Assembly (NCBI GenBank): GCA_002868945.1
Contig: PKTX01000004.1
Coordinates: 11,047-75,046 of the forward strand
Length of the DNA: 64,000 bases
Source: Desulfobulbaceae bacterium
GTDB taxonomy: Bacteria; Desulfobacterota; Desulfobulbia; Desulfobulbales; SURF-16
Direction of reading: 5' to 3'
The position numbers were made by a program, and so were the translations under genes. Positions 2,697-35,840 of the stretch are shown piece after piece. The notes below the pieces were generated by a model. It made no database searches, was not told the origin of the DNA, and was given only the letters and a program-made list of their open reading frames with translations. Positions within the stretch are counted from its first letter, which is position 1. Each line of letters opens with the position of its first letter.

Positions 2697-2835
2697 TGCC
2701 TGTCCAGAAATGGCCCTTTCATCCGATCTCGGCGTCATGCTCAAAAAATAATGCTCGGAATATCGGATATATGCCTGCGCTTATTTTTCTCGCAGTCCTT
2801 GATCTCGAACGAAATGACCTATTTCTGGACAGACA
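2697..2835. mobile_element. MITE-like element, type A (TIR tgYctgtccagaaatgg), 139 bp
   Basis: Terminal inverted repeats are tgcctgtccagaaatgg ... ctatttctggacagaca. It differs at only 3 of 139 positions from the copy at 25638-25776. It has no coding capacity. Confidence 0.75.
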
Positions 2836-4914
2836 CTAGTTGCTCTGTGTTGAATCCAACACCCGGCGGATCGTCTCGGCCAGCTCTTGCAGCGCCACCG
2901 GCTTCACCATGAAGGCCCGGACTCCGTTGGCCTGGGCCTCCTCCCGGCCGATAAGCTCGCTGTAACCGGTGCAGAGCACCACCGGCAGAGCCGGCCGAAG
3001 GCGAAGGACCCGTCGAGCCAGCTCGTAACCGCTGAGATGGGGCATGGTCATATCGGTGAGCAGCAGGTCAAAGGCCAAAGGATCGGTCTCAAGCAGAGTC
3101 AGGGCCTCCATCGGATCATTGAAAATCGTCACCTGATAGCCCAGGCCGCTGAGCATGGCCCGCAGCATGTCGGTGATCATATCCTCGTCGTCCACCACCA
3201 GCAGCCGCTCCGTGCCGGTGGGGAGCTCCTTCAGGCAATCCGCGCATCCAAGTCCGGCTTCGTCCGGCACCAGCGGCAGATAGACATGAAAGCTGGTACC
3301 CTGATCCGGCTCACTGTAAACCGTGATATGGCCCTGAAAACTTTTGACGATGCCGTGCACCACCGAAAGACCCAAACCGGTGCCTTCGCCTTTGGCCTTG
3401 GTGGTGAAATAGGGCTCGAAGATGCGGGGCAGGATCTCTTTTGCAACCCCGGGGCCGGTGTCGCTGATTTCGATGAGGGCATATCTGCCCGGGCTGAGCT
3501 CGGCCCCCACCACCTTGCCGTCTTGAGGATCGATCTCTATGCGACTCAGGCGAACCCCCAGCACGCCGCCGCTCTCACGCATGGCCTGATAGGCGTTGTT
3601 GCACAGATTCATGACAATTTGGTGAAGCTGGGTGGGGTCGGCCATGATCGCGCCGCAGTCCACGGGAACATCCTCGCGGATCTCGATGCTTGCCGGCAGG
3701 GAGGCTCGTAGCAACTTCAGGGCCTCCTTGATGATGGACTGGGGGAGCAGGGGCTGGTTTTCCTGGGGAGCCCGCCGGCTGAATGCCAGGATCTGCCCCA
3801 CCAGATCCTGGGCCCGCCGGGCGGCCTTGGTGATCTGGCCGAGATCCGAAGCCAGCGCTCCTTCGGGATCACGCAGCAGGGCCAGTTCAGCATAGCCGAG
3901 AATGGGAGCCAGGATGTTGTTGAAGTCGTGGGCGATGCCGCCGGCCAGGGTGCCGATGGCCTCCATCTTCTGGGCCTGGCGCAGGCGGTCTTCCAGGCGA
4001 AGCTTGTCCTCTTCATACTCCTTGCGTGCCGTGATATCGCGGTCGATGCCGCGATAGCCGCAAATCCGCCCCTGGCCATCGAACATGGGCGTGCCGCTGG
4101 ACTCAACAATGACCAAGCGGCCCTCCTTGGTGAGAAAACGCCGCTCCACCGCCTGATAGGGACTGGCCGAGTCCACGCAGGAGGAAAAAATCCGCCGCAA
4201 CTGGTCCCGACTCTCCGGCTCGCAGAGCACCTCGAAAAAAATCCTGCCGAGCAGTTCCTCGGGAGTATAGCCGTAAAGCTTCCGGCTCACCGGTGAACAG
4301 TAGGAGAACCTGCCTTCGCAGTCAACCTCCCAGACAAAATCACTGATTGTCTCCACCAGGGAGCGAAAACGATGCTCCGAGGCGCTGATCTCCTGGCGTT
4401 GCTGTTCCGCCAACCGGGAAAGATGCCACTTGGCCGTGAGCGAGAGGGCAAGCTGCTTGATTTCATCCGGGTCAAAGGGTTTGCGCAGAAAGAGCAGCTT
4501 TTCCGATGAGCCCACGGCCCGGACAATCTCCTCAATGCTGTGATCGGAATAGGCAGTGACAATAACCAGCTCAATCTCCGGATCCAGGGCACGGATTCGC
4601 TTTGACGTCTCCATTCCGTCCCAGCCGGGCGGCATCCGAACATCGACAAAAGCCAGGGCAAAGGGCTCTTCCTTGCGCAGCGCCTCCTCCACCATAGCGT
4701 ACCCTTCCTGCCCCTGAACGGCGAAGGAAAGAGAGTAATGCGCCACAGCAGGATCATCCTCCATCACCGGCGAGAGAAGATGGTTTATTTTGTCGGCGGA
4801 TGTTCCGGAAGATACCGCCTCCGGTGTCAACACCAGCTGATACGCCTTCCAAATATCCAGATCATCGTCAATTACCAGAATACGCCGGGGTTGCTGCATC
4901 TTATCCATTGTCAT
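2836..4914 (-). CDS. Hybrid sensor histidine kinase / response regulator (REC-PAS-HisKA-HATPase-REC)
   Basis: The N-terminal receiver is [12 protein letters not shown]...[14 protein letters not shown] region follows ([16 protein letters not shown]). The H-box is [11 protein letters not shown] and the G-boxes are DTGPGV / GTGLGLS. The C-terminal receiver is RLLVVDDED...LLLTDMTMP. The start was moved from ORF-track 5070 to the ATG at 4914 (MTMDK) to avoid overlapping the upstream kinase gene. Confidence 0.85.
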
Positions 4915-4960
4915 TGCCTTGTTGCCTTCCTTTTTCTGCTCCACATCCTGCCTGGTGCCT

Positions 4961-6742
4961 TCACTCTTCCACATTCTGCACCCCCGACACTGCGGCAGGC
5001 AGCAGCACACGGAAACACGCCCCTTTGCCCGGCCCTTCACTCTCTGCCTCGATAAAACCTCTGTTGGCAATCATGTAGTTGGCACAGGCATGCAAGCCAA
5101 AGCCGCTGCCCCGTGCCTTGGTGGAATAGCCGAAGTTGAAAAACCGCTTCTTTTCCTCTTCCGTAAATCCGCACCCCGTATCGGTAACGGAAAAGAAGAC
5201 CAGGCATTGGCCACTGTCCTCCCGGGTATCCGTGACAATGGTCAACTCCCGCACTTCAACGCCACTGTCATCCATGGACTCATAACCATTTTTGATCAAA
5301 TTGACCAGAACCTGAAGAAGCTTTGCCTCTTCCGCCCGCACCGGGGGCACCTCACCCAGGCGGGTCTCGACAGTGATCTGCCGCTTGCCGATATCATCGG
5401 CCAGAATTTTCAGGGCATCCTTGACAAGGCGGTTGATATCAAGATCTTCGGAATGGTCCATGAGCCGGGCGTAGCGCATCTGCAGCCGGATAATGCTTTC
5501 TATATGGCGATGTTTGCCGATGATTGAATGGAGTTCGTTGATGGTGCGATCAAACTCCTCGGTAACCCCGGCTGGAAGATAGCGGATGATCTCCAGGCAA
5601 TGCTCTTTCTCCGCCTGGTTCAACAGCCTCTTTCCTTCAAGAAAATCGCGCAACGGCATAACGGATTCCGCCAGTTTTGAACGAAGGGGACTTTGGGAGA
5701 GATGGGTGCACAGTGTCGTGGCTCCCACCTGAGCCGGCGTAATGGCGTTGCCGATATTGTGCAACACCCCCACGGCCATCTCTGCCATGCCCGCCTCGTG
5801 GGCCTGGCGGACCATGATGTCCTGCACCTCCCGCAGCTCCTGCGTCCTCTCCTCCACCTTTCGTTCCAGAGAACGGGCGTATTCATCAAGCTGTTGCCGC
5901 ATCAGACGCAACTTCTCAGTCATACTGTTGAACGAGGAGGCCAGCCCGACGAATTCCTCGCAAATCATACCCGACAAGGCTATTTCGCGATCAAGATCAC
6001 CGGCCGCAACCTGCTGGACACCGGCATGCAGCACTCTGGTCGTCCGCACAAAGGAACGGGTCAGGATGATGACCACCGTCAGTCCTGCCAGGAAGAAAAC
6101 AAAGAGGATATAGCAAAAATTAATGGTAACCTGGCGCATCTGCGCGGTCCAGGCCGACTGCGCCCGGGCAATTTCATTCTCCATGGGCGCCAAGGTATAG
6201 CCGCAACGAATTACCCCCCATAGCAGATCACCGCTATAAACCGGAAATACCGCCTCCAAAATCCTGCGGGCGCCCTCCTGTTCCTTCTCCGGCCACAAAT
6301 ATTCAACCGAGATTTTGCCGCCCGGCCTCTTCCCGGGAAACGTCTTCTCCATCAAAGTAGCGGCCTTATCGTCAAGCTCCCCGGTGAGGCGACTGCCGAC
6401 TAGATTAGTGTCGTTATGCGCAATAACGGTCCGTGACCGATCCATAATCATACAGTAGAGGATTTCAGGATCGTCCCGAACCACCTCGACAACCAGGTTC
6501 TGTAAGAAGGTGAAATCAAAACCGGCCACGGCCTCTCTGGTACTCATGGCCGTACTCCGAACCAGGGAGGCGCTGCGGAGGACCAGACCCTGTCGGATCA
6601 TATCGATATTGCGTTCGAGTTGAGTGTCGCGAAGCTGAACGGTTTCACGGAGGATGAAAAAGCTGAAGGCCGGAAAGAGCACGCAGAGCAGAATCAAGTT
6701 CATGCCCAGTAAGTATACGGTGATGGTTGGTCGTTTCCGCAT
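4961..6742 (-). CDS. Membrane sensor histidine kinase (periplasmic sensor domain, HAMP, kinase core)
   Basis: Two TM segments flank a periplasmic domain of about 170 aa. A HAMP-like linker is present. The H-region is GVLHNIGNAITP. The ATPase motifs are NLIKNGYES, DTGCGF and GSGFGLH. Confidence 0.8.
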   Translation of the reverse strand: MRKRPTITVYLLGMNLILLCVLFPAFSFFILRETVQLRDTQLERNIDMIRQGLVLRSASLVRSTAMSTREAVAGFDFTFLQNLVVEVVRDDPEILYCMIMDRSRTVIAHNDTNLVGSRLTGELDDKAATLMEKTFPGKRPGGKISVEYLWPEKEQEGARRILEAVFPVYSGDLLWGVIRCGYTLAPMENEIARAQSAWTAQMRQVTINFCYILFVFFLAGLTVVIILTRSFVRTTRVLHAGVQQVAAGDLDREIALSGMICEEFVGLASSFNSMTEKLRLMRQQLDEYARSLERKVEERTQELREVQDIMVRQAHEAGMAEMAVGVLHNIGNAITPAQVGATTLCTHLSQSPLRSKLAESVMPLRDFLEGKRLLNQAEKEHCLEIIRYLPAGVTEEFDRTINELHSIIGKHRHIESIIRLQMRYARLMDHSEDLDINRLVKDALKILADDIGKRQITVETRLGEVPPVRAEEAKLLQVLVNLIKNGYESMDDSGVEVRELTIVTDTREDSGQCLVFFSVTDTGCGFTEEEKKRFFNFGYSTKARGSGFGLHACANYMIANRGFIEAESEGPGKGACFRVLLPAAVSGVQNVEE

Positions 6743-8814: not shown

Positions 8815-9082
8815 ACGGCCTGCTGAGGCAAGGAAAAATGAGGCGAAAAAATGCGCCGCAGGAGGTAAGGGAGCCTGCGACACTCCGAGTACCCTTGGGG
8901 TGCTGTTTCCATGTGGCTCAGGAGCATTTCGGAGTCTCGCTCCGCTCGCTTGGCTCAAGCCGAATCTTAACGACGCATCAGCAGATAGCGAACGAAGAGA
9001 GACCTTCGAGCATAGTAGTTTTTCAACAGGCTGGTAAGCGAGCGGAGCGGGACTCGAAAATAGCAATTATTCAAAATGGCCT
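8815..9082. mobile_element. Type B MITE-like element (inverted copy, left end truncated) plus D/E modules
   Basis: 8815-9033 aligns to the reverse complement of 2471-2688. It is followed by ggtaagcgagcggagcgggactcg and agcaattattcaaaatggcc. Confidence 0.6.
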
Positions 9083-14358: not shown

Positions 14359-14431
14359 CCCCCCTTCCCCCTTCCCCCTTCCGCTGTTGGATAAACGCCG
14401 AACAAGAGTGTGCAAGGAATTTTCTCACTAG

Positions 14432-14548
14432 TGCCTGTCCAGAAATGGCCCTCTCGGATTCTCGTAAACTCGCTTACCGGCCCGATCTCCCGGAGTCTCG
14501 CAAGCTCGCGTAACTCGTCATGCTCCAAAAATAATGCCTGGACAGACA
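14432..14548. mobile_element. Type A MITE-like element, short variant (117 bp)
   Basis: tgcctgtccagaaatggccctctcgga ... aataatgcctggacagaca. Its internal modules match the reverse complement of 35700-35840. Confidence 0.6.
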
Positions 14549-22740: not shown

Positions 22741-22949
22741 TGCACCCTCCCGACCAGGGGCTTGAGGATCATCTCCAGCGGGACGGCACCAGCCTCAACC
22801 AACCACAGCCCCCAAAAGCCCCCCACATGCCACTCAGGAGCCCTCCCCTGGCACGTGGTCTGATAGAGGCTCGGGCAGAACAGAAGAGGCAGCCCCGGCG
22901 CCGTTAGCACCAAGACAAAGCTTGGCAGCCATAATCTGGTGTTCACCAT
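22737..22949 (-). CDS. Possible small membrane protein translationally coupled to the TPR membrane protein
   Basis: 70 aa with a hydrophobic N-terminus. RBS AGGGGGG lies 8 nt upstream of the ATG at 22949. Its stop overlaps the downstream start (ATGA). No homology can be judged. Confidence 0.3.
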   Translation of the reverse strand: MVNTRLWLPSFVLVLTAPGLPLLFCPSLYQTTCQGRAPEWHVGGFWGLWLVEAGAVPLEMILKPLVGRVQ

Positions 22950-23062
22950 TAGTTACCCCCCTGAAAACCAGCCTTTCCGGCCCGTCCGAGCCGGAAAGAG
23001 TGCAGACTCTGCCTGCCTGAAATACGGCAGCCAAAGTCTGCACATCCTCGAGCTGATCTCTC

Positions 23063-23488
23063 TTAGTGATGATCGCTGTCATGCCAGTGGTCATCGCTAT
23101 CGCTGTCGTACCAGTGGTCATCGCTGTCGCTGTCGCCATGATCATGATCCGACTCGTCGGCATCCTGGTTGACGCAGGCACCGCCCACATCAACCTTGGG
23201 AGACCAATAGAGGCCGGTCTCGTAGGACGGGGCCCGCCACAGGTAGCTCACCGTGGTGATGTCGTTGGGGCGCAGGGTTACCTCGCGGCAGACATGGCCC
23301 ACGGCATTGCCGGCGTCATCAAAGGCCCGCATACGCACCGCGGCCCGCAGGTAATTGCCGGTGGCGTTCTTGACATCGGCAGACACGGCCACGGCCTCAT
23401 TCATCTGGACCGAGCCGGCGGCCAAGGCCAGGCCGGAGGTTGCAAATGCGATGAACATCGCAAAGAGAACGGTTCTTGTAAGCTTCAT
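23063..23488 (-). CDS. Small secreted protein with a His/Asp-rich C-terminal tail
   Basis: Signal peptide MKLTRTVLFAMFIAFATSGLALA. The tail is DADESDHDHGDSDSDDHWYDSDSDDHWHDSDHH, encoded by a 27-bp tandem repeat (23084-23110 and 23111-23137). Confidence 0.65.
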   Translation of the reverse strand: MKLTRTVLFAMFIAFATSGLALAAGSVQMNEAVAVSADVKNATGNYLRAAVRMRAFDDAGNAVGHVCREVTLRPNDITTVSYLWRAPSYETGLYWSPKVDVGGACVNQDADESDHDHGDSDSDDHWYDSDSDDHWHDSDHH

Positions 23489-23560
23489 GGGTATTATTCC
23501 TCCAATTATCAGGATATTTTTTCTTTTTTACTCAAATAGCATTCCTTTGCCTGCCGCCCC

Positions 23561-25000
23561 TTACGGCACAACAACGGTGGGGGCATCCATGCTGACCACA
23601 AAGGCGGCCGGGTCATCAAGACCAGGTTCGGCCTGGGCCACGCTGGCATCAAAGGTGGGGGTCATCCTGATGGTGAAGCTGGCATTTCCGTTACCATCTG
23701 CAGTGGGCCAGTTCTGGGCACCTGCCACGGAAATGTAGGCATTGATGTTGACATTGGCCAGGTCATCGATATTGCCCGGCACCCACAACGAATCAGCCAT
23801 CCAGGCCGCGATGGTGGCATCATCCACCGGAATGGGGGCACGGACATCGGTACCCACGGAAGGCGCGATCTCACTGGCAATGCCGTCGCCATCATAGTCG
23901 TGGAGCTGATAATCCTCACGATAGGTCACCCACTGGCCGTCACAACCGGCATTGGGGGCGCCGGCCATGGCAGCCTCTTCGTCAAAGGCGCCGTCACAAC
24001 TGGCGGTGAGCATGTTGTCGGTATAGGGATTACCGTCGTCATCATAGAAGAAACCACCCTTCATCTGATCGCCGGGCAGCCACTCGCCAAAGAGGTCACG
24101 ATGGACCTGGGACAGGCCGGTGGTGGTGATGGACGTCTCTCCGGCCAGCAGACCAAAATTGGCACGAACGTAAGGGTTGAAATAGCCGGTGGAGGTGTGG
24201 TGCTTGTCAATGGCACCAAACAGGCCATGAGCCATGAGAGCGTCGAGCTCACCCTGATTCATTACCGTACTCGGCGTGGGAGCGACATCGTCGTAGACGG
24301 CTCCGCTCTTGGCACAGTAGGCGATACCATCGCCGGGACTCGCCTTGACAAACTGGCCGTTGACCATGAAGCCGAGCTCCTGGGTAAAGCCGGTAACCCG
24401 GCTGCCCGTATGGTTGCCATACTTCTGAAGAATACGATAGACATCACTGCTGCCCGTGGCGGACACGTCAAAGGTCAGATCCACCGGGCCATCAAGTACA
24501 TAGCTCACCATCTTGAAACGCTTACTGGACTGCCAGGGATCTGAACACTGCTTGATATCGGTGCCCCAGGGTGACTCCGGCATCCAGCCGGCCGACATGA
24601 TGCAGTTTTGGCCGGTGACGTCATCCCCGGTAACAACACTAAGGCCGGGTCCCTGGGTATCTCTCTCCTTCCAGGTCATGGCGCCGTTCTGGCTGGTCAT
24701 GGAGAGATCGGTAAAGATATTGGTCGTGCCCACCAAGTACTTGACCCAGCCGCTGGGCATGAAGCCGTCCGTGGCCACGGTTCCGGTGTTGGGGTCAACC
24801 AGGCTGCCCGGTTCCACCCAATTAAAGATATCGAATCCGTCATAGGGAATACCGGTCTCGATGGCGACTTCCTGCTGAGACTGGGCCGGCGAGGTAAGCG
24901 ACATATCCCACCGCTCGATGACATCCGCCTTGGCAACACCAGCGGCGCTGACCAGACCCAGGGCCGCGACAGCGACCATTACTTTTCTGCTTCCTTTCAT
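23561..25000 (-). CDS. Secreted protein of unknown function (479 aa)
   Basis: Signal peptide MKGSRKVMVAVAALGLVSAAGVAKA. Asp-rich, calcium-site-like stretches are present (FYDDDGNPYTDN, HDYDGDGIASE). I recognise no family. Confidence 0.6.
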   Translation of the reverse strand: MKGSRKVMVAVAALGLVSAAGVAKADVIERWDMSLTSPAQSQQEVAIETGIPYDGFDIFNWVEPGSLVDPNTGTVATDGFMPSGWVKYLVGTTNIFTDLSMTSQNGAMTWKERDTQGPGLSVVTGDDVTGQNCIMSAGWMPESPWGTDIKQCSDPWQSSKRFKMVSYVLDGPVDLTFDVSATGSSDVYRILQKYGNHTGSRVTGFTQELGFMVNGQFVKASPGDGIAYCAKSGAVYDDVAPTPSTVMNQGELDALMAHGLFGAIDKHHTSTGYFNPYVRANFGLLAGETSITTTGLSQVHRDLFGEWLPGDQMKGGFFYDDDGNPYTDNMLTASCDGAFDEEAAMAGAPNAGCDGQWVTYREDYQLHDYDGDGIASEIAPSVGTDVRAPIPVDDATIAAWMADSLWVPGNIDDLANVNINAYISVAGAQNWPTADGNGNASFTIRMTPTFDASVAQAEPGLDDPAAFVVSMDAPTVVVP

Positions 25001-25410
25001 GTAACTTCTCCTTCCTCAAGGTTAGTAAGGCGCTCCTCGGACAAGGGCAAAAGGGCCAGGAAATCGGCTCGCCCTTGTTCCTGCCGATCAACATCAGGCA
25101 GCAGGAGAGGAACAGAACAACAAACTCTTCGAGGGGAGATAAGAGCAGAGAACGTACCACCTGGACGTAAAAAAAGATCACTAACCGTAAAATGCCGCCA
25201 ATATCCTGCAATCACGGTATTTTTTTTCGAAAAAAAAGCAGCGGCCCACCAAAAAACACGGCAATTCGTCGCAGCAGGCAGAAACTGCTCAACAACTCAC
25301 TAGAACCTGCAGAGCCATTTCGGCTTACAACGAACCGAAAAATCCCGGCTTTGCAAAAAAATGAAAAGAGAGGTGAAAAAAATAGGATGAACGGGATACC
25401 AACAAGAAAT

Positions 25411-25505
25411 TTAACTTTCCGAGTTGAGATAATTATTAGACATTACACGAGGTAAAAGCGATTTGGACGTGTGCTTCAAGGAGAATTCAGGAGTCAGGAA
25501 ACAGA
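25411..25505 (+). repeat. Repeat family 2, copy B
   Basis: ttaactttccgagttgagataatt...gagaattcaggagtcaggaaacag. The first hairpin is retained with a U-G-compatible change. Confidence 0.55.
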
Positions 25506-25637
25506 AAAAAAGCTTAAGGCCATCTTGAATAATTGCTCTTTTGGTCGTTCTGACGTCTGGAGTGCGGCCCTGCATTCCGGCATGTTGCAAAAAATTTCAG
25601 CGCCCCACTAACAATCCAGACAAGATCAGCAAGATAG

Positions 25638-25776
25638 TGCCTGTCCAGAAATGGCCCTTTCACCCGATCTCGGCGTCATGCTCAAAAAATAATGCTCGGA
25701 ATATCACATATATGCCTGCGCTTATTTTTCTCGCAGTCCTTGATCTCGAACGAAATGACCTATTTCTGGACAGACA
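25638..25776. mobile_element. Type A MITE-like element, 139 bp
   Basis: 136 of 139 positions are identical to 2697-2835. It is preceded by module E (ggccatcttgaataattgct at 25518). Confidence 0.75.
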
Positions 25777-25811
25777 CAAGAGAACAGAGGCCGGACGTTG
25801 AGAGAAAAGAA

Positions 25812-27485
25812 CTAATTCTGGTCCGGCAGAGAGAAGATGAAGCGGTTGCGACCCTCGGCCTTGGCGGCATACATGGCGGTATCGGCATTCTTGACCAGAA
25901 CATCGGCACTGGTAAGCTCCGGCGACGACAGACAGATACCAATGCTCACCCCGATAACGCACTCGTCATCATGGATAAAAAAGGGTTTGTCAAAGGCCTC
26001 CAGGATCTTGGTGGCCACCTTCATGGCATCACTGGCATGACGCACCCGGCTGAGCAGGATGGTAAACTCGTCGCCACCCACCCGGGAGACGGTATCGGAC
26101 TCACGCACCGTTGCCGTCAAGCGCCGGGCCACCTCCTGCAGGGCCAGGTCGCCCCCCTCATGGCCATGCTTATCATTAAGCGGCTTGAAGTGATCAAGAT
26201 CAAGATAAAAGAGGGCGAAGAGATGGCCATAGCGCCGAGCCTCCTTCATGGTGACCTGCAAGCGATCAAAGAAGAGGTTGCGGTTGGGCAGGCCGGTGAG
26301 TTTATCGAAGTTGGCCAGAAACTCCAGCTGGTCACGCTGCTCCTTGAGTTCGCTGATATCATGGCCGAGACAGGAGATACCCTGCAGGGTGCCGTCAGGC
26401 AGATAGAGGGCACTGGCCGAAAAGAGCACCGGGATGGCACGTTTATCGGCGTCAACATAAAAGGCCTCCAGATTGATGACCGCCTTACCCTCGAGCAGCC
26501 CCTGAAACAGGGAACTGGCAACCGCCTCATCCGGATGGCTGAATAGCGCGGAAAAGGCCGCCCCCTCAAGCTCCTCTTCGGATAGACGCAGCAGGCGCAG
26601 GGTGGCATGGTTCACCGTCTGGATGGTGAGATCCGGATTGAGAATAATCAGGGAGTCGGACATATTATTAATGATATTATCAACATAATCACGAGAGACC
26701 GTGATGTGTTGGAGCTCACGGGTCATCTGCCAGAAGGACACGGCCAGGTCGTGAATCTCGTCACCATCGGGGCTGCCGGCCGGTTTGTCCACCGTGCGAC
26801 CCCGGCTGAAATCAAGGATCATCTTTTTGACGCTGGCCAGGGGCGCTATGATCTCCTTATTGGCCAGCCAGTTAATGACCATGGTGGTGAGCACCAGGAA
26901 GAGAACAAAGAGAACCTGAAGCAGACGGGTATAGCGATCAATACGCTCATTATTATTGGTGAGATCGGTGACGATCATCTCCTGAAGCGATTTCACGACA
27001 GTCCTAAAATCGGCATCAAGGCGGGCCCGGAGCTTGCCGAGCTGAAGCACCTCCCGGCGTGCTGCAAAGATATCGCCCTGGTGCACCGCTTCCAGATAAT
27101 ACTGGGACGCCATGACAAAATAGTCATTATAATCGTCGCGCAGGGCCAGGATGCGGGGATAGAGATCATTATGGCGGCGACTGGCCAGCCGCACCAGCTC
27201 GTCGAGCAGGGCGGCGATCTCCTCATGCCGACCATTGGCCTGCACGACTTCGCCCTCCTCACCGGTAAGCAGGCCGTTTTCATAATCATCACTCTGGGCC
27301 TTAAAGAGGGCCTGGACCCGAATACCATTGGAGGAGAGGGGCAGATCTGTTTTCTCGATGTGGGAAATGGAGGCCTTGGTCTGGTTATTGACCCAGGTGG
27401 TGGCCAGGGTGGCAACGAGATAGCTGAGCAGGGCCACACTGACGCAGGCCCATATTTTGCTGCGGATATTACGGAGAAAACGCAT
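25812..27485 (-). CDS. Diguanylate cyclase (periplasmic helical sensor-TM-HAMP-PAS-GGDEF)
   Basis: The GGDEF active site is SRVGGDEFTILL, with an upstream RxxD-like region. A PAS region (IIILNPDLTIQTVNHA) and two TM segments flanking a periplasmic domain are present. Confidence 0.85.
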   Translation of the reverse strand: MRFLRNIRSKIWACVSVALLSYLVATLATTWVNNQTKASISHIEKTDLPLSSNGIRVQALFKAQSDDYENGLLTGEEGEVVQANGRHEEIAALLDELVRLASRRHNDLYPRILALRDDYNDYFVMASQYYLEAVHQGDIFAARREVLQLGKLRARLDADFRTVVKSLQEMIVTDLTNNNERIDRYTRLLQVLFVLFLVLTTMVINWLANKEIIAPLASVKKMILDFSRGRTVDKPAGSPDGDEIHDLAVSFWQMTRELQHITVSRDYVDNIINNMSDSLIILNPDLTIQTVNHATLRLLRLSEEELEGAAFSALFSHPDEAVASSLFQGLLEGKAVINLEAFYVDADKRAIPVLFSASALYLPDGTLQGISCLGHDISELKEQRDQLEFLANFDKLTGLPNRNLFFDRLQVTMKEARRYGHLFALFYLDLDHFKPLNDKHGHEGGDLALQEVARRLTATVRESDTVSRVGGDEFTILLSRVRHASDAMKVATKILEAFDKPFFIHDDECVIGVSIGICLSSPELTSADVLVKNADTAMYAAKAEGRNRFIFSLPDQN

Positions 27486-27492
27486 GGCACAC

Positions 27493-27942
27493 CTAGTCGA
27501 CTATGGGAATCGCCCTCACCTCGGGCGTAAGCGCCTGCGGGCTGACATAGCCCAGCCCGTTGCAATGGGCCGTGATAAAATTGATGACCTCCTGGTCGGT
27601 CTGTACGGATGGCGGCGGCATACCCTGGCCACGAAAGAGCATCTTTTTGCGAAAGAACAGATACTGGCGTGGCGACCTCTTCAGGATATCATAAGTGAAG
27701 TCACTGTAAATTTTGGGATTTTCATTAATCACCACGGCAATATTTTTGCCGCTCGACCAGCTTCGTTTCCTGCTTAAAAAGATGAGCGCCACATCCTTAC
27801 GGCTGAGACTCTCGACCTGATTGTTGTGGTTTGCCACCAACACGAAACTGTCGCCGGCAGCGGCCTGCGTGCCTGCGGCCGCCATCAGTCCCAGCAGGAC
27901 AAGGAGCCCACCCAGATATTTTCTCCCCAAAAAATGCATCAT
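27493..27942 (-). CDS. Small periplasmic PBP-like (PstS-type half-domain) protein
   Basis: 149 aa with a signal peptide. FVLVANHNNQVESLSRKDVALIFLSRKRSWSSGKNIAVV matches the PBP-like pattern hhVh....v..Ls..#h..If.g....W..G..I. There is a 1-nt stop/start overlap with the porin gene. Confidence 0.6.
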   Translation of the reverse strand: MMHFLGRKYLGGLLVLLGLMAAAGTQAAAGDSFVLVANHNNQVESLSRKDVALIFLSRKRSWSSGKNIAVVINENPKIYSDFTYDILKRSPRQYLFFRKKMLFRGQGMPPPSVQTDQEVINFITAHCNGLGYVSPQALTPEVRAIPIVD

Positions 27943-29147
27943 CAGAAATTAAAGGTGAGCTTGAGGGCACCATACTGCCAATAACGCTCGGCGCCGCCCG
28001 GATTGAAGTAGCCCATGTAAAAGGCGGTGCCGTCAATGGTATGCCACTCTGCCTTAAAGGTCCAGTTATCACTGATATCATAGCGCAAGGCCACAGCCAG
28101 ATCCTTGCGCCATGGATAAAGATTCCTGCTACCCACTGCCTCATGACGATTTCTGATCAGCCGGTAATACTCGTCATAAAAAAGCGACAGGGTAAGGGTT
28201 TCAATGGGGCTGTAGCTCAACAGCACATACCAGGCCCGTGAGCGGCCATCCAGGGTGGTCCGGCTAAACTGCTGCTGGCGCCGATCTGTCTCGCTGTACT
28301 CGGCAGCAACGCTGAACCGTTGCCAGGAGTACTCCAGGGAGGCTACCACCTTGCCCTTGACCCGCAGACTGCTGACCCGGGTGGCATGGATCCGCGCCTC
28401 ATCCTCCAGGCTCAGAAAGGTAAGGGCGGCGCGCAGGCCTTCCAGGGCCGGGTTATAATAGAGGGCGGCGCCATAGACGTAGTCGTTTTCACGGCTCAGA
28501 TTATCGGTGGTCAGATTGAGGGCATAGAGTTGATTGTAGCGGTTGACAATCTCCGTGGCCGCCAGGGTGGCCAGGGAGTCATCATCATAGTCGATCTGAC
28601 CGACGAAGAGCTGGTAATCAAGATCCCCCCACGGTCCGAGGGGCAGGTTACCGTAAACCTCCCCCCCCCAATGGGCCTGCCAGGAATCGCGCCTGGTCTC
28701 GTCATAGATTGATTGCGGCAAAAAGATCAGGGGCCGCAGAAAATCGGAGTCCCGCTCCATATTATAGAGGCCCATGGGCATCTTGATCTTACCGACCCGT
28801 GCACCCAAAGGATCTGTCAGGTGGTACTCTGCCACCAACCAATCGGTGCGGACATTGCCGTTACTGGCCTCGCCGAAATGGCAGTAGAGCGCCTGACCGC
28901 CGAGGCGAAATTTGTCAGTGACCTGGGCATTGAGGTTGACCCCAATCTCGCGAAACTTAAAGGTACCGTCTTTGCTATCACCGAGAAAATCATTGCCGTT
29001 GGTGTCCAGGTAGCCCTGGGTGGCAAAGCCGTGAAGCTGGATCCTTTCCCCCAGGTCAATGGCAGCCGCCGGCCTCGCAGGCAGAATAAGCAACAACAGC
29101 AAAGAAAAAGACAGGGGCCGGACAGAAAAAAAACAGCGAAAAGACAT
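27942..29147 (-). CDS. Outer-membrane beta-barrel porin-like protein
   Basis: A signal peptide is present (...ILPARPAAA). The beta-strand-rich sequence ends ...GALKLTFNF. TAATG gives a 1-nt overlap with the upstream regulator gene. Confidence 0.65.
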   Translation of the reverse strand: MSFRCFFSVRPLSFSLLLLLILPARPAAAIDLGERIQLHGFATQGYLDTNGNDFLGDSKDGTFKFREIGVNLNAQVTDKFRLGGQALYCHFGEASNGNVRTDWLVAEYHLTDPLGARVGKIKMPMGLYNMERDSDFLRPLIFLPQSIYDETRRDSWQAHWGGEVYGNLPLGPWGDLDYQLFVGQIDYDDDSLATLAATEIVNRYNQLYALNLTTDNLSRENDYVYGAALYYNPALEGLRAALTFLSLEDEARIHATRVSSLRVKGKVVASLEYSWQRFSVAAEYSETDRRQQQFSRTTLDGRSRAWYVLLSYSPIETLTLSLFYDEYYRLIRNRHEAVGSRNLYPWRKDLAVALRYDISDNWTFKAEWHTIDGTAFYMGYFNPGGAERYWQYGALKLTFNF

Positions 29148-30493
29148 TAGGCTTGTGCTCTCCTGAGTTGATAATCTGTAATTTTTTTACGCAGGGTGGT
29201 GGGTGAGATATCCAAGGCATGGGCGCTGTGGGTGATATTCCAGTCATGTCTGACCAACACCTGGCTTATGTGCATCTTTTCCACGGCTGCCAGGGTGCCG
29301 CCCACGGGCCGCAGGCTCTGCTGCTTTTTGTCGGCCTGCTCCGGAACCAGATCTTCGGCATCAATGTCGTTGCCATGGGCCAGGACAATGGCCCGAGTAA
29401 GGGTATTTTCCAGCTCACGGACATTGCCGGGCCAGTTCCAGGCCCGCAGCTTCTGGCGGGCCGCCGTACTCAGGGTGGGGGCCGGCCGGCCCATCTTGCC
29501 GGCGATTTTGATGAGCAGATGCTCAGCCAGGGCATCGATATCGCCGCGCCGCTCACGCAGGGGCGGCACCCCGATACTCACCACGTTGAGACGGTAAAAA
29601 AGGTCGCGACGGAAGGTGCCCTTGTCCACCATCTCCACAAGATTGCGGTGGGTGGCTGTGACGATGCGGGCCAGCAGCGGCCTGGACTTGAGCCCTCCCA
29701 CCGGCACAAACTCATCCTCCTGCAGAACGCGCAGCAGCTTGCTCTGCAGGTCCAGGGACATATCGCCGATTTCATCGAGAAACACCGTGCCGCAGCCGGC
29801 AAACTCCAGCTTGCCCACCTTGTTCTGCTCGGCGCCGGTGAAGGCCCCCTTTTCATAGCCGAAAAGCTCACTTTCAAGCAGGGTGGGGACAAAGGCCGAG
29901 CAATTAATGGCCACAAAGGGTTGCTCCGGTGCCGTGGCCTCATGGAGGATGCGGGCCACCAACTCCTTGCCGGTGCCGCTCTCGCCCTTGACCAGCACGG
30001 TGACACGACTGCGGGCCAATCGACCGATCTGCTTGTGAATGTCGATAATTTTGCGATCCGAGCCCACCATTTCCAGGGGTTTGGTCTTCTCGGGACACAC
30101 CTCATCCTGCTCTGCCGTGCCATTGCCCTTTTTCTTGAGGGCTTCGACCTTGGCCGCCATATCCAGCAGCTCGTCAAGATCCAGGGGCTTACGCAGGTAG
30201 TCATAGGCACCGTCGCGCAGGGCCGTTACAGCCTCGGTATTCTCCGTGTTGCCGGTCATGATGACCACGATCACCCCGGGCCGGCTGTCAAGGATAGCAG
30301 GCAGGGCCTTGAGACCATGCACGTCGGGTAGATTGAGGTCGAGCAGCACCAGGTCCGGGGTGATCTCCGGCAGGCGAGTCATGCCGTCCGAGATGTTGTG
30401 GGCCACGGCCACGCCGTGGCCCTCGGCCTTGAGTTGAATCTCCAACGATCTGGCCAAGGCCAGATCGTCATCAATAATAAGAATTTTGATCAT
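29147..30493 (-). CDS. Sigma-54-dependent response regulator (NtrC family: REC-AAA+-Fis HTH)
   Basis: The receiver is KILIIDDD...LLDLNLPD. AAA+ motifs are VLVKGESGTGKE and the GAFTGA loop YEKGAFTGA, followed by FLDEIGDM. The C-terminal HTH is HSAHALDISPTTLRKKI. Confidence 0.9.
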   Translation of the reverse strand: MIKILIIDDDLALARSLEIQLKAEGHGVAVAHNISDGMTRLPEITPDLVLLDLNLPDVHGLKALPAILDSRPGVIVVIMTGNTENTEAVTALRDGAYDYLRKPLDLDELLDMAAKVEALKKKGNGTAEQDEVCPEKTKPLEMVGSDRKIIDIHKQIGRLARSRVTVLVKGESGTGKELVARILHEATAPEQPFVAINCSAFVPTLLESELFGYEKGAFTGAEQNKVGKLEFAGCGTVFLDEIGDMSLDLQSKLLRVLQEDEFVPVGGLKSRPLLARIVTATHRNLVEMVDKGTFRRDLFYRLNVVSIGVPPLRERRGDIDALAEHLLIKIAGKMGRPAPTLSTAARQKLRAWNWPGNVRELENTLTRAIVLAHGNDIDAEDLVPEQADKKQQSLRPVGGTLAAVEKMHISQVLVRHDWNITHSAHALDISPTTLRKKITDYQLRRAQA

Positions 30494-30530
30494 ACCTGTT
30501 AACCCCTGCTATTGGGACAAAAGTATCTAG

Positions 30531-30707
30531 TGTCTGTCCAGAAATGGCCCTCTCGGAGTCTCGCGAGCTCGCTTGCCTCGTCATGCTCAAAAAATAATGC
30601 TCGGAGGTAAGCGAAACGAAGTGGAGACTCCGATATCGTATATATGCCTGTGCTTATTTTTCTCGCAGTCCTTGATCTCGAACGAAATAACCATTTCTGG
30701 ACAGACA
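30531..30707. mobile_element. Type A MITE-like element with an inserted module (177 bp)
   Basis: tgtctgtccagaaatggccctctcggagtctcgcgagctcgc ... gaaataaccatttctggacagaca. It lies between the kinase and regulator genes of one operon. Confidence 0.7.
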
Positions 30708-30784
30708 CTCTCTAAACAACCATACCGGCCACCACCACATGCAGAGCGTGTGCAGCATGGTTTTTTTCCCTTCTGCCATGGAAA

Positions 30785-32542
30785 TCAATCCTGAAAAAGT
30801 AATGAAAAAACAGCCCCTCCCTCAGGATTATTTCCTGCAAAAACTGCGCCGCCTTGATAATCCATCACTTTTTTCACATTGGCCAGACCAAGACCGGTAC
30901 CCAGTTCGCGGGTGGTAAAAAAGGGATGGAATACCTTTTCCATCTGCTCAACAGTCAAACCAGGGCCATGATCCGTGACACTGATCAGGACAGCGCCGGT
31001 GCCGTCCCGGGGGCGCTGGCCGGCTATTATCACCTCACTGGCCACCGGCGACCATTGGATGGCATTGCCCACCAGATTGGCGAGGGCTCGGCAGGAATGG
31101 GCTCTGTCGGCCCGGAAGAGGGCATTGCCAAGATTATCTTCAACCCGCAGGACGATATCCTTGGCTGCCGCTTCTGATTGCAGGGTAGTGAGCACCTCAT
31201 CAACAAGCTGGCAAAAAGTGATCTTCTTTTTGCGGATATCCAGGGGCTTGCTGAACTGCAGCAGGTCGTCAAACATCTGCTCCAACCGGCCGACCTGCAC
31301 CAGGGAGATATCGGCCATTTCGCCATAGGCCTCGTCACCGGCCACCTTCCGGGCCAAGGCCTGCAGATTGATCTTTATGGAGGAGAGCGGATTACGCATC
31401 TCATGGACAATGCTGGAGCTCATCCTGCCCACCGTACTTAATGCCGTGCTCTGCAGCATGGAGCGCTGTTGCTGCTCCAGGGTGTCCATCATGGTATTAA
31501 AGGCCTCCCCCACCTCCTGAACATACTCCTCCTTGAAAGGCGGCAGCCGCTGGCTGTGTTGACCGGCAGTAATCCGGCGGGCAACCCTGGCCAGCTCATC
31601 CAGGGGGGCGGTCAAACGGCTGGAAAGGTTCTTGGCCAGGACAACGACAATAAGAACGGTGACAAACACGGTGACCAGGCCATAGAGGATAAAACTCTGA
31701 AACTGGTTGAGAGCACCGCCGGTGGGGAACTGGCTGATGAGCAGCCAGTCAAACTCATCAATGGGGGCATGAATCGAATAGACCTCGTCACCTTCGCAGT
31801 TCAGCATGCGCCTCACCTGCCAGGCCGGGCTGTCCAGCAGAGAGGTCGGCACCCTGTTCCCCGCACATTCCTGCACCGGTTCGGTCTGGTCCGCCAAGGA
31901 GGAACGATAAAGAATTTTGCCCTGCCTACTTACCAGGATATAACGCCCACCCTCATTAAGATCCGAGGTGTCACCGAGGATACGATCCAATGAGCGGCTC
32001 AGGTTGACCTCGGCCACCAGAAAGGCACCGACCTCTCCCTGTTTATTGAGCAGGGCCTGGCCCACCGGCAAAATAACATCGCCATTATCATGACGATACT
32101 CGCCGCCAAGCTGAAAGAGGCCACCCGGCGCCTCAAGCGCCCGGCGATACTGTCCCTGCGGCATCTGGACCGCTCCCTTGACCCCTTCCGGATACCGAAC
32201 AAGCAGGCTCCAGTCGGAACGATAGAGGCTAATGGAGCGATAGATAATATGGCCCTTGAAGAGTTTCCGGGCAGCGAGCAGGTAGCGCTCCTGTTCACTG
32301 CCCCCCTGGCGGCCGGAGCCGGTAAAGGCCAAGTGATAGAAGTCCTGCCGGGTGTGGCTCACCCAGGTTCGCAACCAGAGAAGGCGGGAACGCAGAGAAA
32401 AGGAGAGGTGCTCCTTTTCGACATTTTCAATGGAATTACGGGCAAAGATGTGGTTTTGAAAGGCCATTATCAGCAGAGGAAAGAGACCCACAAAGGTCAT
32501 GGCCAAAAAAATCTGTCTATTCAGTCCAGAGGTTATTTTCAT
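30785..32542 (-). CDS. Membrane sensor histidine kinase (periplasmic Cache-like domain, HAMP, HisKA, HATPase)
   Basis: Two TM segments flank a sensor domain of about 270 aa. The H-box is SSIVHEMRNPLSS. The ATPase motifs are NLVGNAIQW, DHGPGL and GTGLGLA. Confidence 0.85.
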   Translation of the reverse strand: MKITSGLNRQIFLAMTFVGLFPLLIMAFQNHIFARNSIENVEKEHLSFSLRSRLLWLRTWVSHTRQDFYHLAFTGSGRQGGSEQERYLLAARKLFKGHIIYRSISLYRSDWSLLVRYPEGVKGAVQMPQGQYRRALEAPGGLFQLGGEYRHDNGDVILPVGQALLNKQGEVGAFLVAEVNLSRSLDRILGDTSDLNEGGRYILVSRQGKILYRSSLADQTEPVQECAGNRVPTSLLDSPAWQVRRMLNCEGDEVYSIHAPIDEFDWLLISQFPTGGALNQFQSFILYGLVTVFVTVLIVVVLAKNLSSRLTAPLDELARVARRITAGQHSQRLPPFKEEYVQEVGEAFNTMMDTLEQQQRSMLQSTALSTVGRMSSSIVHEMRNPLSSIKINLQALARKVAGDEAYGEMADISLVQVGRLEQMFDDLLQFSKPLDIRKKKITFCQLVDEVLTTLQSEAAAKDIVLRVEDNLGNALFRADRAHSCRALANLVGNAIQWSPVASEVIIAGQRPRDGTGAVLISVTDHGPGLTVEQMEKVFHPFFTTRELGTGLGLANVKKVMDYQGGAVFAGNNPEGGAVFSLLFQD

Positions 32543-32670
32543 ACCGCTTTAAAGAAGCCTTTCAACAATGAACACCCCATATCCTTGGCCATCTCATAAA
32601 CTTACCAGATTTCTCTAAACAGCGACAACAACTATCATCCGTCATCTTTTGCGGTGGGTGCAAAATCCCC

Positions 32671-32714: not shown

Positions 32715-32791
32715 GCACCAGTAGCTCAGCTGGATAGAGTACATGACTACGAATCATGGGGTCGCAGGTTCGAATCCTGCCTGGTGTACCA
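32715..32791 (+). tRNA. tRNA-Arg (anticodon ACG), CCA encoded
   Basis: 77 nt, GCACCAGTAGCTCAGCTGGATAGAGTACATGACTACGAATCATGGGGTCGCAGGTTCGAATCCTGCCTGGTGTACCA. I folded the cloverleaf by hand: anticodon stem CATGA/TCATG, loop CTACGAA, T-arm GGTTCGAATCC. It is very similar to E. coli tRNA-Arg(ACG). The 1-72 pair is G-U. Confidence 0.9.
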
Positions 32792-32880: not shown

Positions 32881-34050
32881 TCATTGCAGCCCCTCAGCCA
32901 CAATGAGAGAGATAGCCATCTCCTGGGTGGCCAGGATGGAGGCTTGGCTGATGGCCAGGTAGTCACTCTGGAGCTGCTGGGTCAACAGGATCTGCTCCGC
33001 GGTGAGGCCGATATTATCGGCCATGGCCAGGATGAGGTCAGCCATCTCGCCGATGGAGTTGGCCATCACACCGATATCTGCAGACATCTCCAGCATACTG
33101 CCGATGGAGGCGGAAAGGTTCTGGTCGCTGAGGGCAGCGACCATGCTCTGCAGGGCCAGATTATAGCCGTCCAGGACAATGGCCACCGATGAGGCCATGC
33201 TGGCCATATTGTTCATGGCCAGCATGGTGGAATCATCAATCACCATGGTGCTCGTGGCACTGTCGGACTCTATCTGGTCTGCCATGGCCAGTCCCTGCAC
33301 CATAAAATTTCTGACGTCATCGGCGGCGGCGGCCAACTGGTACTTGATGGTCCAGGGGCTGAAGACGGTGCCGGTCAGGTCGGCAGCCAGCAGCTCGCCC
33401 TGGACAGCCAGGCTGTTGAGATCAAGGTCATAGCTGGCCGTCTCCACCGCCGACACCAGGGTCAGCATATTGGTCTGGGTCTGCAGGAGGGTGGCCTGGG
33501 TCATGGCCACATTCTGATTCTGAATCTCCTGGGTGACGAGGATACGGTCGGCCATCAGGCCGATATTGTCCGCCATGACCAGGATACGGTCGGCCATCTC
33601 ACCGATGCGGTCGGCCATGGTGCCGATATCGTCGGAGAGCTGCAGCATGGCGGTGAGACCATCCTTGATGGTGATGGTGTCGGCCGCCGGTACCAGAAGC
33701 TGCAGTTCAGCGGCCAGCCGGCCAACCTCATCCGCCAACTCGACATTGGCCATGAACAACCCCTCCAGGGCGATGAGCATGGTATCGTCAATGGTGATGG
33801 GCGCCGCCAGGCTGCTGTTGACCGCCTCAATATCTTCAACCAGGGCGCGGGCCGCCTGATGAGCAGCGGTCAGCGGCGCACAGACCACCTCTGGGCTGAG
33901 GCTGGTGGCGGTAAACTGGCCCTCCACGGCAGCGGCCTGGTGGACCAGGCCCTCGATATCCGTGGTGACATCAGCGCGGGCGCTGTGGGGCAGCAGCAGG
34001 ACCAGGACGACGAAGAGAGGGGCTATGGTGGTATGCAGTAGATTTTTCAT
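32881..34050 (-). CDS. Secreted Met-rich heptad-repeat protein A (x-I-G-x-M-A-D repeats), unknown family
   Basis: Signal peptide MKNLLHTTIAPLFVVLVLLLPHSARA. Two internal halves each end in DIGTMADRIGEMADRILVMADNIGLMADRILVTQ / DIGVMANSIGEMADLILAMADNIGLTAEQILLTQ. The start was refined to 34050, which has RBS AAGGAG. Confidence 0.8.
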   Translation of the reverse strand: MKNLLHTTIAPLFVVLVLLLPHSARADVTTDIEGLVHQAAAVEGQFTATSLSPEVVCAPLTAAHQAARALVEDIEAVNSSLAAPITIDDTMLIALEGLFMANVELADEVGRLAAELQLLVPAADTITIKDGLTAMLQLSDDIGTMADRIGEMADRILVMADNIGLMADRILVTQEIQNQNVAMTQATLLQTQTNMLTLVSAVETASYDLDLNSLAVQGELLAADLTGTVFSPWTIKYQLAAAADDVRNFMVQGLAMADQIESDSATSTMVIDDSTMLAMNNMASMASSVAIVLDGYNLALQSMVAALSDQNLSASIGSMLEMSADIGVMANSIGEMADLILAMADNIGLTAEQILLTQQLQSDYLAISQASILATQEMAISLIVAEGLQ

Positions 34051-34074
34051 GGTCTTTCTCCTTATCATCCCGAC

Positions 34075-35238
34075 CTACAGGCCCATATTTCTGATCACGG
34101 TGAGGGTGACGTTCTGGGCCGTGAGCAAAGAGCTCTGCGTGAGTTCGATATTGGCCTGCTGCAGCTCCTGGGTGGCGACGATGCGATCGGCCATCACACC
34201 GATATTGTCGGCCATGACAATGATCTTGTCGCTCATCTCCATGATGCGGCCGGCCATGACACCGATATCGGCACTAAGGCGCAGCATGGCGGCGGTGGCG
34301 TCAGCAAGGATCACCGTATCGGTGAGCGGTGCCAGTTGTTCGATGCTGGCGCTGTACACCTCCAGCGAGCTGGCCAGGCCGGCATAGATGGCAGAGAGAT
34401 GTCCAAAATAGGTCAGGGTATCACCGTTAAGAGAGTGGCTGGCGTCCTGGCTGCTGACACTCATCCAGGTATAGAGATCAACCACACTGGTGACCATGAG
34501 GCTGGTGGTGGCCTGCAACCGTTCAAGCTCCTGGGCCATGTTGTCCGTGCTCAGACTGACGACGGCCATATCGTCGACAAGATTTTCGCCGTTGTCAGCC
34601 ACCTGCCCCAGGGTAACATTATAGATGATGCTGGACAGGCTGTCGCTTAAGGCCACCATGTTCTGCTGGGTGGTAAGGATAGCGGCCTGGGTCAGGGCGA
34701 CATTGGCGTTCTGAAGCTGCTGGCTGATGAGAATCCGATCGGCCATGGTGCCGATATTGTCGGCCATGGCCAGGATACGGTCGGCCATCTCCAGGATGCG
34801 ATCAGCCATGGTGCCGATGTCGTCGGAGAGCTCCAGCATGGCGCTCAAGGCGGCCCGATACTCCACCAGGTCCGCCACATCCTCGATGTCGTCAACCTCA
34901 AGACTGAGCCGCACACCATTGGCAGCCATCTCCCTGGCCATGGTGGACAGGCTGTCCAGGGCATCGAGTTCATCACTGCCAATGGAAAGCGGCGCGGCGA
35001 GCTCGGCCTGGATGGTCTCGATATTGATCACAAACGCCTGGATATCGCTATTGATAAGCCCCAGGTCGCTGCAGGTCTGACCGGTAAAACTGAAATCAAC
35101 CAAGGATGTATTGATCCCGTCAGCCTGACCGACCAAGGCCTGCAGGTCGTTGCCGAGAGCCGCCTGCACGGGCTGACTCAGCACAGTCAGTAACACGACG
35201 ACCAGCAGCCCTGTTGTACTCCTTTTACAAAAAAGCAT
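34075..35238 (-). CDS. Secreted Met-rich heptad-repeat protein B (paralog of A)
   Basis: Signal peptide MLFCKRSTTGLLVVVLLTVLSQPVQA. The modules are DIGTMADRILEMADRILAMADNIGTMADRILISQ and DIGVMAGRIMEMSDKIIVMADNIGVMADRIVATQ. RBS GAGGA is present. Confidence 0.8.
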   Translation of the reverse strand: MLFCKRSTTGLLVVVLLTVLSQPVQAALGNDLQALVGQADGINTSLVDFSFTGQTCSDLGLINSDIQAFVINIETIQAELAAPLSIGSDELDALDSLSTMAREMAANGVRLSLEVDDIEDVADLVEYRAALSAMLELSDDIGTMADRILEMADRILAMADNIGTMADRILISQQLQNANVALTQAAILTTQQNMVALSDSLSSIIYNVTLGQVADNGENLVDDMAVVSLSTDNMAQELERLQATTSLMVTSVVDLYTWMSVSSQDASHSLNGDTLTYFGHLSAIYAGLASSLEVYSASIEQLAPLTDTVILADATAAMLRLSADIGVMAGRIMEMSDKIIVMADNIGVMADRIVATQELQQANIELTQSSLLTAQNVTLTVIRNMGL

Positions 35239-35536
35239 TTGCGTATCCTCAGTGGCAGTTTAATAATTCAACTATTTAATTATATTATTTCCGAGAAGAT
35301 AGTCGGTTTGCTGGCCAACGTCAACTGTGCCGCCCGAGAAAAACAGTCCGATCCTCAGCCGCTGATCTGCCGGCAAATGAAAAAAGAACCCCTGACAGCG
35401 TTCTTCGCCGCAGCCGGCACCGCGCCTGGCGCCCCCGGCCGCGCCACCACTTTTCCTTGCTTTTTGCCCATGAAATAGCTGATCATGGGCCAGCGACCGG
35501 GCCAAGCGACACTGGCATAAAACATGCATCACCTAT

Positions 35537-35840
35537 TATCTGGCCAGAAACAGAACATTTCGGATGTCTCGCGTACCTGTTGGCGATCAAGGAGTGCGAA
35601 AAGAGAAGCACGCCCTGAAAGAGGTAAGGGAGCCTGCGACACTCCGGGTGCCCTTGGCGTGCAGGTGTCCATGCGATATCGGAGTCTCCACTTCGTTTCG
35701 CTTACCTCCGAGCATTATTTTTGGGCATGACGAGGCAAGCGAGCTCGCGAGACTCCGGGAGATCGGGCCGGTAAGCGAGTTTACGAGACTCCCGGTAAGC
35801 GAGTTTACGAGACTCCGAGAGGGCCATTTCCGGAGAGACA
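35537..35840. mobile_element. Composite type A MITE-like element with multiple internal modules (304 bp)
   Basis: Degenerate TIRs are tatctggccagaaacag ... ccatttccggagagaca. It contains module F(rc) and three tandem copies of a 23-25-bp unit, gg(c/t)aagcgag(ctcg/ttta)cgagactcc. Confidence 0.65.

Follow-up and report, generated by a model that had tools for sequence, protein, structure and literature searches.

A 64-kb stretch of a Desulfobulbaceae genome (contig PKTX01000004.1 of assembly GCA_002868945.1; hereafter the window) contains a family of short non-coding repeats that is very probably a genuine family of miniature inverted-repeat transposable elements (MITEs) mobilized by insertion sequences of the ISNCY type. 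As a kind of MITE it is ordinary; the family occurs widely among Desulfobulbaceae and the sulfate reducers related to them, and its hairpin core is unusually well conserved. Below, A-type ends are those flanked by a 6-bp target-site duplication (TSD) and B-type ends those flanked by a 4-bp TSD, and the strand of an element is the one that carries the stronger hairpin.

Dispersed copies with 6-bp target-site duplications

The motif TGYCTGTCCAGAAATGG occurs eight times in the window, against 0.03 expected, at 2697+/2835-, 14432+, 25638+/25776-, 30531+/30707- and 35840-. A preliminary description of the window, made from its letters, had placed five copies bounded by terminal inverted repeats (TIRs) at these loci, and the loci stand; the exact ends do not, as they were set one base short on each side. 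The elements run from GTGYCTGTCCAGAAATGG to CAC (GTG...CAC), and the outer base belongs to the element because the register of the 6-bp TSDs places it there. Such TSDs, which that description had suggested looking for at each copy, were found at all five (Table 1). The TIR GTGYCTGTCCAGAAATRG is present at both element ends, the size is 118–306 bp in the window with a modal value of 141 bp across genomes, and no meaningful open reading frame (ORF) was seen inside the copies. A repeat search of the window retrieves common sub-modules and a near-identical pair (149 nt, 97%). When recounted, the copies at 2696 and 25637 differ at exactly three positions (27, 70 and 71 of the 141-bp unit; 97.9% identity), the number given earlier from a hand alignment.

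To survey the wider distribution, we scanned one genome per species with GTGYCTGTCCAGAAATRG and obtained at least 88 loci; these and the loci from later searches carry L numbers below. By our own arithmetic about 70 matches are expected by chance across the whole genome collection, which accounts for singletons in unrelated phyla. Among the matches listed, hits concentrate in Desulfobacterota, with hosts including the Desulfobulbaceae metagenome-assembled genome (MAG) JAHLLM01, Ca. Desulfobulbus rimicarensis, Desulfosarcina, a Desulfoarculaceae MAG, Desulfocapsa and several MAGs labelled 'Deltaproteobacteria'. The similarity extends beyond the ends: the entire 141-bp unit recurs at 70–95% identity in many Desulfobacterota genomes, and a single Desulfobulbaceae MAG contributes at least about 15 copies. 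The preliminary description had allowed that a genome-wide search might find only the copies in the window; copies were instead found in many genomes. A scan of viral contigs with the TIR gave 45 single matches and zero pairs, probably chance.

From the matches listed, we pulled out 51 TIR-bounded copies for TSD and folding statistics. A 6-bp flanking direct repeat is perfect in 24 of the 51, with a mean identity of 0.82, compared with 0.21–0.38 for alternative lengths of 3–10 bp. The 2-bp value is also high (0.70) because the target, with consensus TARYTA, begins and ends with TA. The genes flanking the 51 copies are unrelated to one another.

A-type ends also enclose interiors unrelated to the one described here (L011/L057, L035/L041/L073, L007/L045, L012/L048/L060/L063/L079 and L042/L072), including minimal forms of 45–73 bp. 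The ends therefore define a superfamily in which the hairpin core is one passenger, and many distinct MITE families use the same ISNCY ends.

ISNCY insertion sequences with matching ends

A full-length insertion sequence with the same TIRs, which the preliminary description had expected a broader search might find, is present in four genomes (L013, L136, L137 and L138; Table 1), with none in the window. These ISNCY elements are 1.68–1.70 kb long, start with GTGYCTGTCCA and encode a DDE transposase of 451–456 aa. The 454-aa ORF of L013 scores 419.8 bits on the NCBIfam model NF033593 'ISNCY family transposase' (cut-off 325 bits), covering model positions 12–444 of 444, and contains the Pfam domains DUF772 and DDE_Tnp_1. 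Homologues of the transposase are abundant (5795 matches at E<=1e-20), and many are carried by contigs of about 1.7 kb, the pattern that a repeated insertion sequence would give. L013 came from the loci with a single TIR, and the other three elements are homologues taken from longer contigs. By size and TSD the elements resemble the ISDol1 group of ISNCY in ISfinder (1.6–1.9 kb, 6–7-bp repeats) and may belong to it. Among the at least 88 loci, TIR pairs 0.4–4 kb apart with a TSD yielded only a two-MITE composite. An ORF beside a lone TIR in L087, considered as a candidate transposase, was ruled out as a J-domain protein.

Table 1 Elements in the window and insertion sequences with matching ends (copies in window coordinates)
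Feature	Location	Strand	Length	TSD (left/right)	Details
A-type MITE	2696..2836	-	141 bp	TAGTTA (2690-2695)/TAGTTG (2837-2842)	covariance model 158 bits
A-type MITE	14431..14548	-	118 bp	TCACTA/CCACTA	internal deletion, right TIR reduced to 11 nt, two units aboard
A-type MITE	25637..25777	-	141 bp	AAGATA/AAGAGA	covariance model 160.5 bits
A-type MITE	30530..30708	-	179 bp	TATCTA/TCTCTA	two optional ~24-27-nt units in inverted relative orientation
A-type MITE	35536..35841	+	306 bp	CACCTA/TACCTA	reverse orientation to the other A-type copies in the window; left TIR degenerate, TTATCTGGCCAGAAACAG; five main-type units and a 60-nt module containing a variant unit
Truncated sixth copy	2340..2466	-			by-eye comparison shows homology to the right-hand part of the 35536 copy; right TIR CCTGTTTACGGACAGGCAC
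B-type sibling	59009..59149	+	141 bp	ATAA/ATAA	covariance model 116 bits, full length
B-type-ended composite	560..776	+	217 bp	TTTA/TAAA, not convincing	60-nt module and one unit
ISNCY insertion sequence, L013	501-2179 of L013		1679 bp	AACTA/AACTA (5 bp)	downstream end exactly GTGTCTGTCCAGAAATGG, other end GTGCCTGTCCATGAGGAC
ISNCY insertion sequence, L137 (GCA_054013575.1)			1688 bp	TAACTA/TAACTA	
ISNCY insertion sequence, L138 (Desulfogranum marinum)			1700 bp	TAGCTA/TAGCTA	GTGTCTGTCCATAAATGGC as downstream end, identical to MITE ends at 19 of 19 nt
ISNCY insertion sequence, L136 (Desulfobulbaceae MAG)			longer, assembly gap inside	TAGGTT/TAGGTT	

On the mechanism that this anatomy suggests, the terminal ~12–19 bp of the MITE (GTGYCTGTCCA[G/T]AAATGG) would be the recognition ends of an ISNCY-family insertion sequence, with its IS5-related DDE transposase. 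A transposase encoded elsewhere in the genome would excise or copy the MITE, and insertion at TA-rich hexamers (TARYTA) with a 6-bp staggered cut would leave the 6-bp TSD.

Insertion sites and syntenic relatives

Pfam matches confirm the earlier placement of one copy, that at 30530, between the genes for a sensor histidine kinase (30785-32542, minus) and a sigma-54 response regulator (29147-30493, minus). The 25637 copy lies 34 nt downstream of the stop of a PAS-GGDEF gene (25812-27485, minus), the 14431 copy has genes for an ABC substrate-binding protein and a TonB-dependent receptor on either side, and the 35536 copy occupies a divergent intergenic region upstream of a gene for an ATPase resembling the type II secretion system (T2SS) E protein.

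Gene order is conserved in relatives whose regulator is 78% identical: kinase, sigma-54 regulator, 404-aa gene, 148-aa gene, PAS-GGDEF gene, 477-aa gene. The four loci compared (L140–L143) have no element at the kinase-regulator site or downstream of the GGDEF gene. Between the kinase stop and the regulator start the relatives have 6 bp and the window 291 bp, made up of 76 nt, the 179-bp MITE and 36 nt. No TIR was found anywhere in L143, a 21-kb locus syntenic with the window (~70% nucleotide identity over positions 21856-32569), including at the site of the 25637 copy. The preliminary description had reasoned that elements occupying orthologous positions in relatives would point to a conserved regulatory RNA; both comparable sites are vacant.

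These observations bear on the idea that the repeats are not mobile DNA but a conserved family of cis-regulatory elements or small-RNA genes with fixed positions. Such a family would explain why the structure is conserved with covariation (see below) and why signalling genes (for kinases, a GGDEF protein and the sigma-54 regulator) are among the neighbours of the copies. It is difficult, however, to reconcile with 6-bp TSDs, with absence from both compared sites in the syntenic relatives, with unrelated flanking genes and random orientation over the 51 copies, with an insertion sequence that has identical ends, or with the lack of an Rfam match, and we consider it highly improbable.

The insertion sites also illustrate how the elements spare genes. 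The stop codon of a hybrid histidine kinase gene (2836-5070; stop at 2836-2838, minus) is the junction TA|G of the 2696 MITE, and the reconstructed pre-insertion site reads AAC TAA. The C-terminus of the kinase (...LDSTQSN) ends within two to three residues of those of its orthologues (...LDEK, ...LDSRQ). By crude ORF prediction, such a junction with an ORF stop is seen in 8 of the 51 copies. Since an element with the form G...C in a TA..TA target makes every junction read TAG inward, insertion onto a TAA or TAG stop leaves a stop, which fits the presence of copies directly at gene ends and inside an operon.

Several points weigh against mobilization by ISNCY-type elements. All five TSDs in the window match at five of six positions, with one mismatch each, and tblastn found no transposase in the 64-kb window, in agreement with the preliminary description. 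Left and right ends within each of the four insertion sequences have only ~12 bp in common, both MITE ends resemble the downstream end (right inverted repeat, IRR), and the interior of the MITE shows no relation to the insertion sequences examined. The last two features indicate that the MITE is not a simple internal-deletion derivative. We infer the pairing of the MITE with an ISNCY transposase from end identity and TSD length. As for the relatives, the two sites compared are not base-exact empty sites, and 112 non-MITE bases of the window spacer (30709-30784 and 30494-30529) are absent from them. The core of the earlier proposal, a mobile MITE whose transposase lies elsewhere, is nonetheless borne out by the TSDs, the dispersed copies, the absence from relatives and the matching insertion sequence. 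Its further claim that the family was recently active fared less well: the near-identical pair fits it, yet the TSDs in the window are all mutated and the window holds no transposase, and recent activity in this genome is unproven.

A strand-asymmetric hairpin core

The 141-bp unit folds end to end, with a predicted energy of -63.5 kcal/mol (z = -8.5) on one strand and -43.3 kcal/mol on the other. Applying RNAalifold to an alignment of 24 diverse copies (A1), we obtained 41 consensus pairs, 18 of them with compensatory double changes. Paired cells amount to 96.6% versus 87.6% in shuffles, none of the 500 shuffles was as good, and slid controls gave six to nine pairs. The same strand is the more stable in 43 of the 51 copies, by 10–20 kcal/mol, with a mean difference of 9 kcal/mol, and the consensus energies are -36.7 kcal/mol for the stable strand versus -13.4 kcal/mol for its reciprocal. 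Counted on the consensus structure for both strands, G.U cells number 73 and A.C cells 8; when a state is required in at least two sequences, nine pairs show G.U and zero show A.C. The asymmetry is retained in interiors alone and in sub-lineages with different interiors, and it is absent from the OFTM167 class, which has A-type ends and comes from a MAG labelled 'Verrucomicrobia'. An internal loop, ATCAAGG / GACGC, is conserved in A-type and B-type elements.

Folding predicts that the MITE interior probably forms a stable stem-loop in read-through transcripts, whose effect on the host may be nil. Scans for promoters and terminators inside the elements returned nothing convincing. At gathering thresholds, Rfam recognized only a tRNA in the window, and the region 2400-2900 had no match up to E = 5.

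Two proposals about what the stable strand follows were unsupported: that it is the strand transcribed with the upstream gene (~12 sense versus 10 antisense) and that it tracks the leading strand (16 of 39 by local GC skew). The internal loop was also considered as an IHF site or a Dam site, and both ideas were dropped after inspection by eye gave no match.

The same core under a second set of ends

The preliminary description had listed 59019-59152 as a TIR-less fragment. It is in fact a full-length 141-bp copy with different ends (GGCTATCTTGAATAATTGC; GGGTGTCTTTAATAATTAGA...GCAATTATTCAAGATAGCC) and a 4-bp TSD (59009 copy in Table 1). Compared with the 2696 copy, its interior is 87% identical, and the terminal 20 nt match at only 9–10 positions. 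The B-type ends GGCYATCTTGAATAATTGC and GGGTRTCTTGAATAATTAG also occur at 560, 9081 (9063-9081) and 25518 (25518-25536), so that two further stretches described as TIR-less, 556-776 and 9034-9082, have B-type ends at 556-776 and 9063-9081. A metagenome scan with the B-type end gave further full copies, and eight loci outside the window are B-type (L036, L145, L147, L148, L152, L154, L155 and L166). Across ten B-type elements the 4-bp TSD is perfect in seven (TTCA, TTAC, TATA, TAAA, TTTA, TTAA and TTAT). B-type cores are 80–89% identical to A-type cores, their ends share 8–12 of the 20 terminal bases, and they carry the same optional units. Three core variants were each found with both end types, implying that ends and cores recombined more than once.

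These findings raise the possibility that selection maintains the ~100-nt hairpin core as a strand-specific module that acts single-stranded, either as RNA or as DNA in transposition or replication, and that has repeatedly changed transposon ends. The A-type shell would then pair with the ISNCY transposase and a 6-bp TSD and the B-type shell with another partner and a 4-bp TSD. The strand asymmetry, the excess of G.U over A.C, the strong covariation, the presence of the same core under both end types (in three variants) and the loop conserved in both are all consistent with selection. Several observations argue the other way. The stable strand is oriented at random with respect to flanking genes (~12:10) and GC skew (16/39), and the element has no internal promoter or terminator and no Rfam match. 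Intrastrand templated repair in a DNA palindrome can yield compensatory changes in the absence of selection, and shared ancestry accounts for part of the asymmetry, so copy counts are not independent. Finally, A-type ends with unrelated interiors (L011/L057, L035/L041/L073 and the OFTM167 class) indicate that the ends do not need the core. We therefore regard selection on the core as a tentative proposal, possible but rather less likely than its absence.

Optional units and modular variants

The size variants arise in part from a unit of 21–27 nt, GGTAAGCGA-N-GAGACTCC, that is, (C)AGG-TAAGCGAG-N3-8-CGAGACTCC-GA, with conserved flanks and a variable middle. Fourteen occur in the window and others in further genomes, and the unit occurs in at least three repeat families and in several genomes. 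Besides MITE interiors, it is found at 727-750, 2525-2548, 8931-8954 and 9033-9056 and in L015, L028, L051, L061 and L065. Within the core, three fixed sites can take the unit as an optional insert, in either orientation; it occupies the same sites in A- and B-type copies of different genomes, and paired units re-fold the element. Modules at the same sites in other genomes look inherited or exchanged and not like a local mosaic. An array at 35740-35815, earlier described as a tandem triplication, comprises two tandem units and a third 15 nt away (35736-35816).

The preliminary description had called the result a BIME-like mosaic, and the likeness holds for modularity only, as the elements have TIRs and TSDs. 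REP/BIME and REPIN elements are not known to have TIRs or TSDs and depend on HUH enzymes. Could the repeats nevertheless be REP/BIME- or REPIN-like, with a RAYT transposase (HUH, single-strand) moving them? A modular mosaic built from short units would fit, as would a long hairpin with strand-specific G.T/G.U pairs, expected of single-strand substrates, and we take the 21–27-nt unit to be loosely reminiscent of REP sequences. However, neither HUH-mediated REP/REPIN insertion nor insertion of the IS200/IS605 type is known to make fixed-length TSDs such as those seen here (6 bp for A-type, 4 bp for B-type). TIRs are present, their sequence and the TSD recur in a DDE insertion sequence, and no RAYT appeared among the 10 window ORFs run against Pfam, although no search was aimed at RAYT. 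We give this explanation very little credence and favour mobilization by an ISNCY transposase.

Other repeats and genes in the window

A third repeat (type C in the preliminary description) at 2480-2660 and, on the opposite strand, 8830-9010 combines the unit with the 60-nt module CTGCACCCCAAGG...CCTTACCT and recurs, conserved, in another Desulfobulbaceae MAG (L028, about 470-520). At 16782-16934 lies a palindromic element with ends CTA|GTGTCGTGTCAAGGATG...GTTGACACGACAC|TAG, whose first bases resemble the A-type TIR; it has a weak covariance-model match (27 bits) and no 6-bp TSD. Among genes, two small overlapping ORFs at 33-535 may encode, judged from their translation by eye, a YefM/Phd-type antitoxin followed by a YoeB-type toxin. 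Two tandem paralogous genes at 32881-35238 (395 and 387 aa, minus) contain four internal 193-nt repeat copies and match DUF7162 weakly, and a tRNA gene (32715-32788) lies just upstream of the pair.

Discussion

Bacterial MITEs that form a hairpin over their whole length include Correia/NEMIS of Neisseria, ERIC/IRU of enterobacteria, RUP of Streptococcus pneumoniae and Chunjie of Geobacter uraniireducens. These elements resemble the present family in being non-coding, 100–200 bp long and bounded by TIRs and TSDs, with many intergenic copies. They also share with it a long stem-loop if transcribed, size variants made by optional modules, and insertions tolerated at gene ends and in operons. The differences lie in the target, the partner and the core. 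The TSD of Correia and RUP is TA, whereas here the ends are GTGYCTGTCCAGAAATGG and the 6-bp TSD falls at TARYTA; the hosts are Desulfobacterota and the proposed partner is an ISNCY-type transposase; and the core, which is preserved with compensatory changes in different families and orders, also occurs under a second set of ends. Compared with ISNCY insertion sequences themselves (NF033593), the MITE has ends equal to their downstream end and the same 6-bp TSD in a TA-rich target, but no transposase gene, an unrelated interior and IRR-type sequence at both ends. With REP/BIME and REPIN it has in common the modular mosaics and a hairpin more stable on one strand, and it differs in having TIRs, TSDs and a matching DDE insertion sequence. 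A search of the literature on MITEs of Desulfobulbaceae and sulfate reducers, on ISNCY and on ISDol1 found no description of this family.

Intergenic repeats of this family in Desulfobulbaceae and related sulfate reducers can now be assigned exact ends, a rule for the target (TARYTA, 6 bp) and a probable partner, the ISNCY transposase. A named family aids annotation and accounts for assembly breaks in these MAGs. Insertions of this kind move genes of one operon apart, and those on stop codons leave the protein undamaged. If the core is indeed selected, the family would offer a natural test of MITEs spreading functional RNA or single-stranded DNA structures, and of transposase switching. The core would then be a passenger structure spread by MITE shells, and not filler between inverted repeats.

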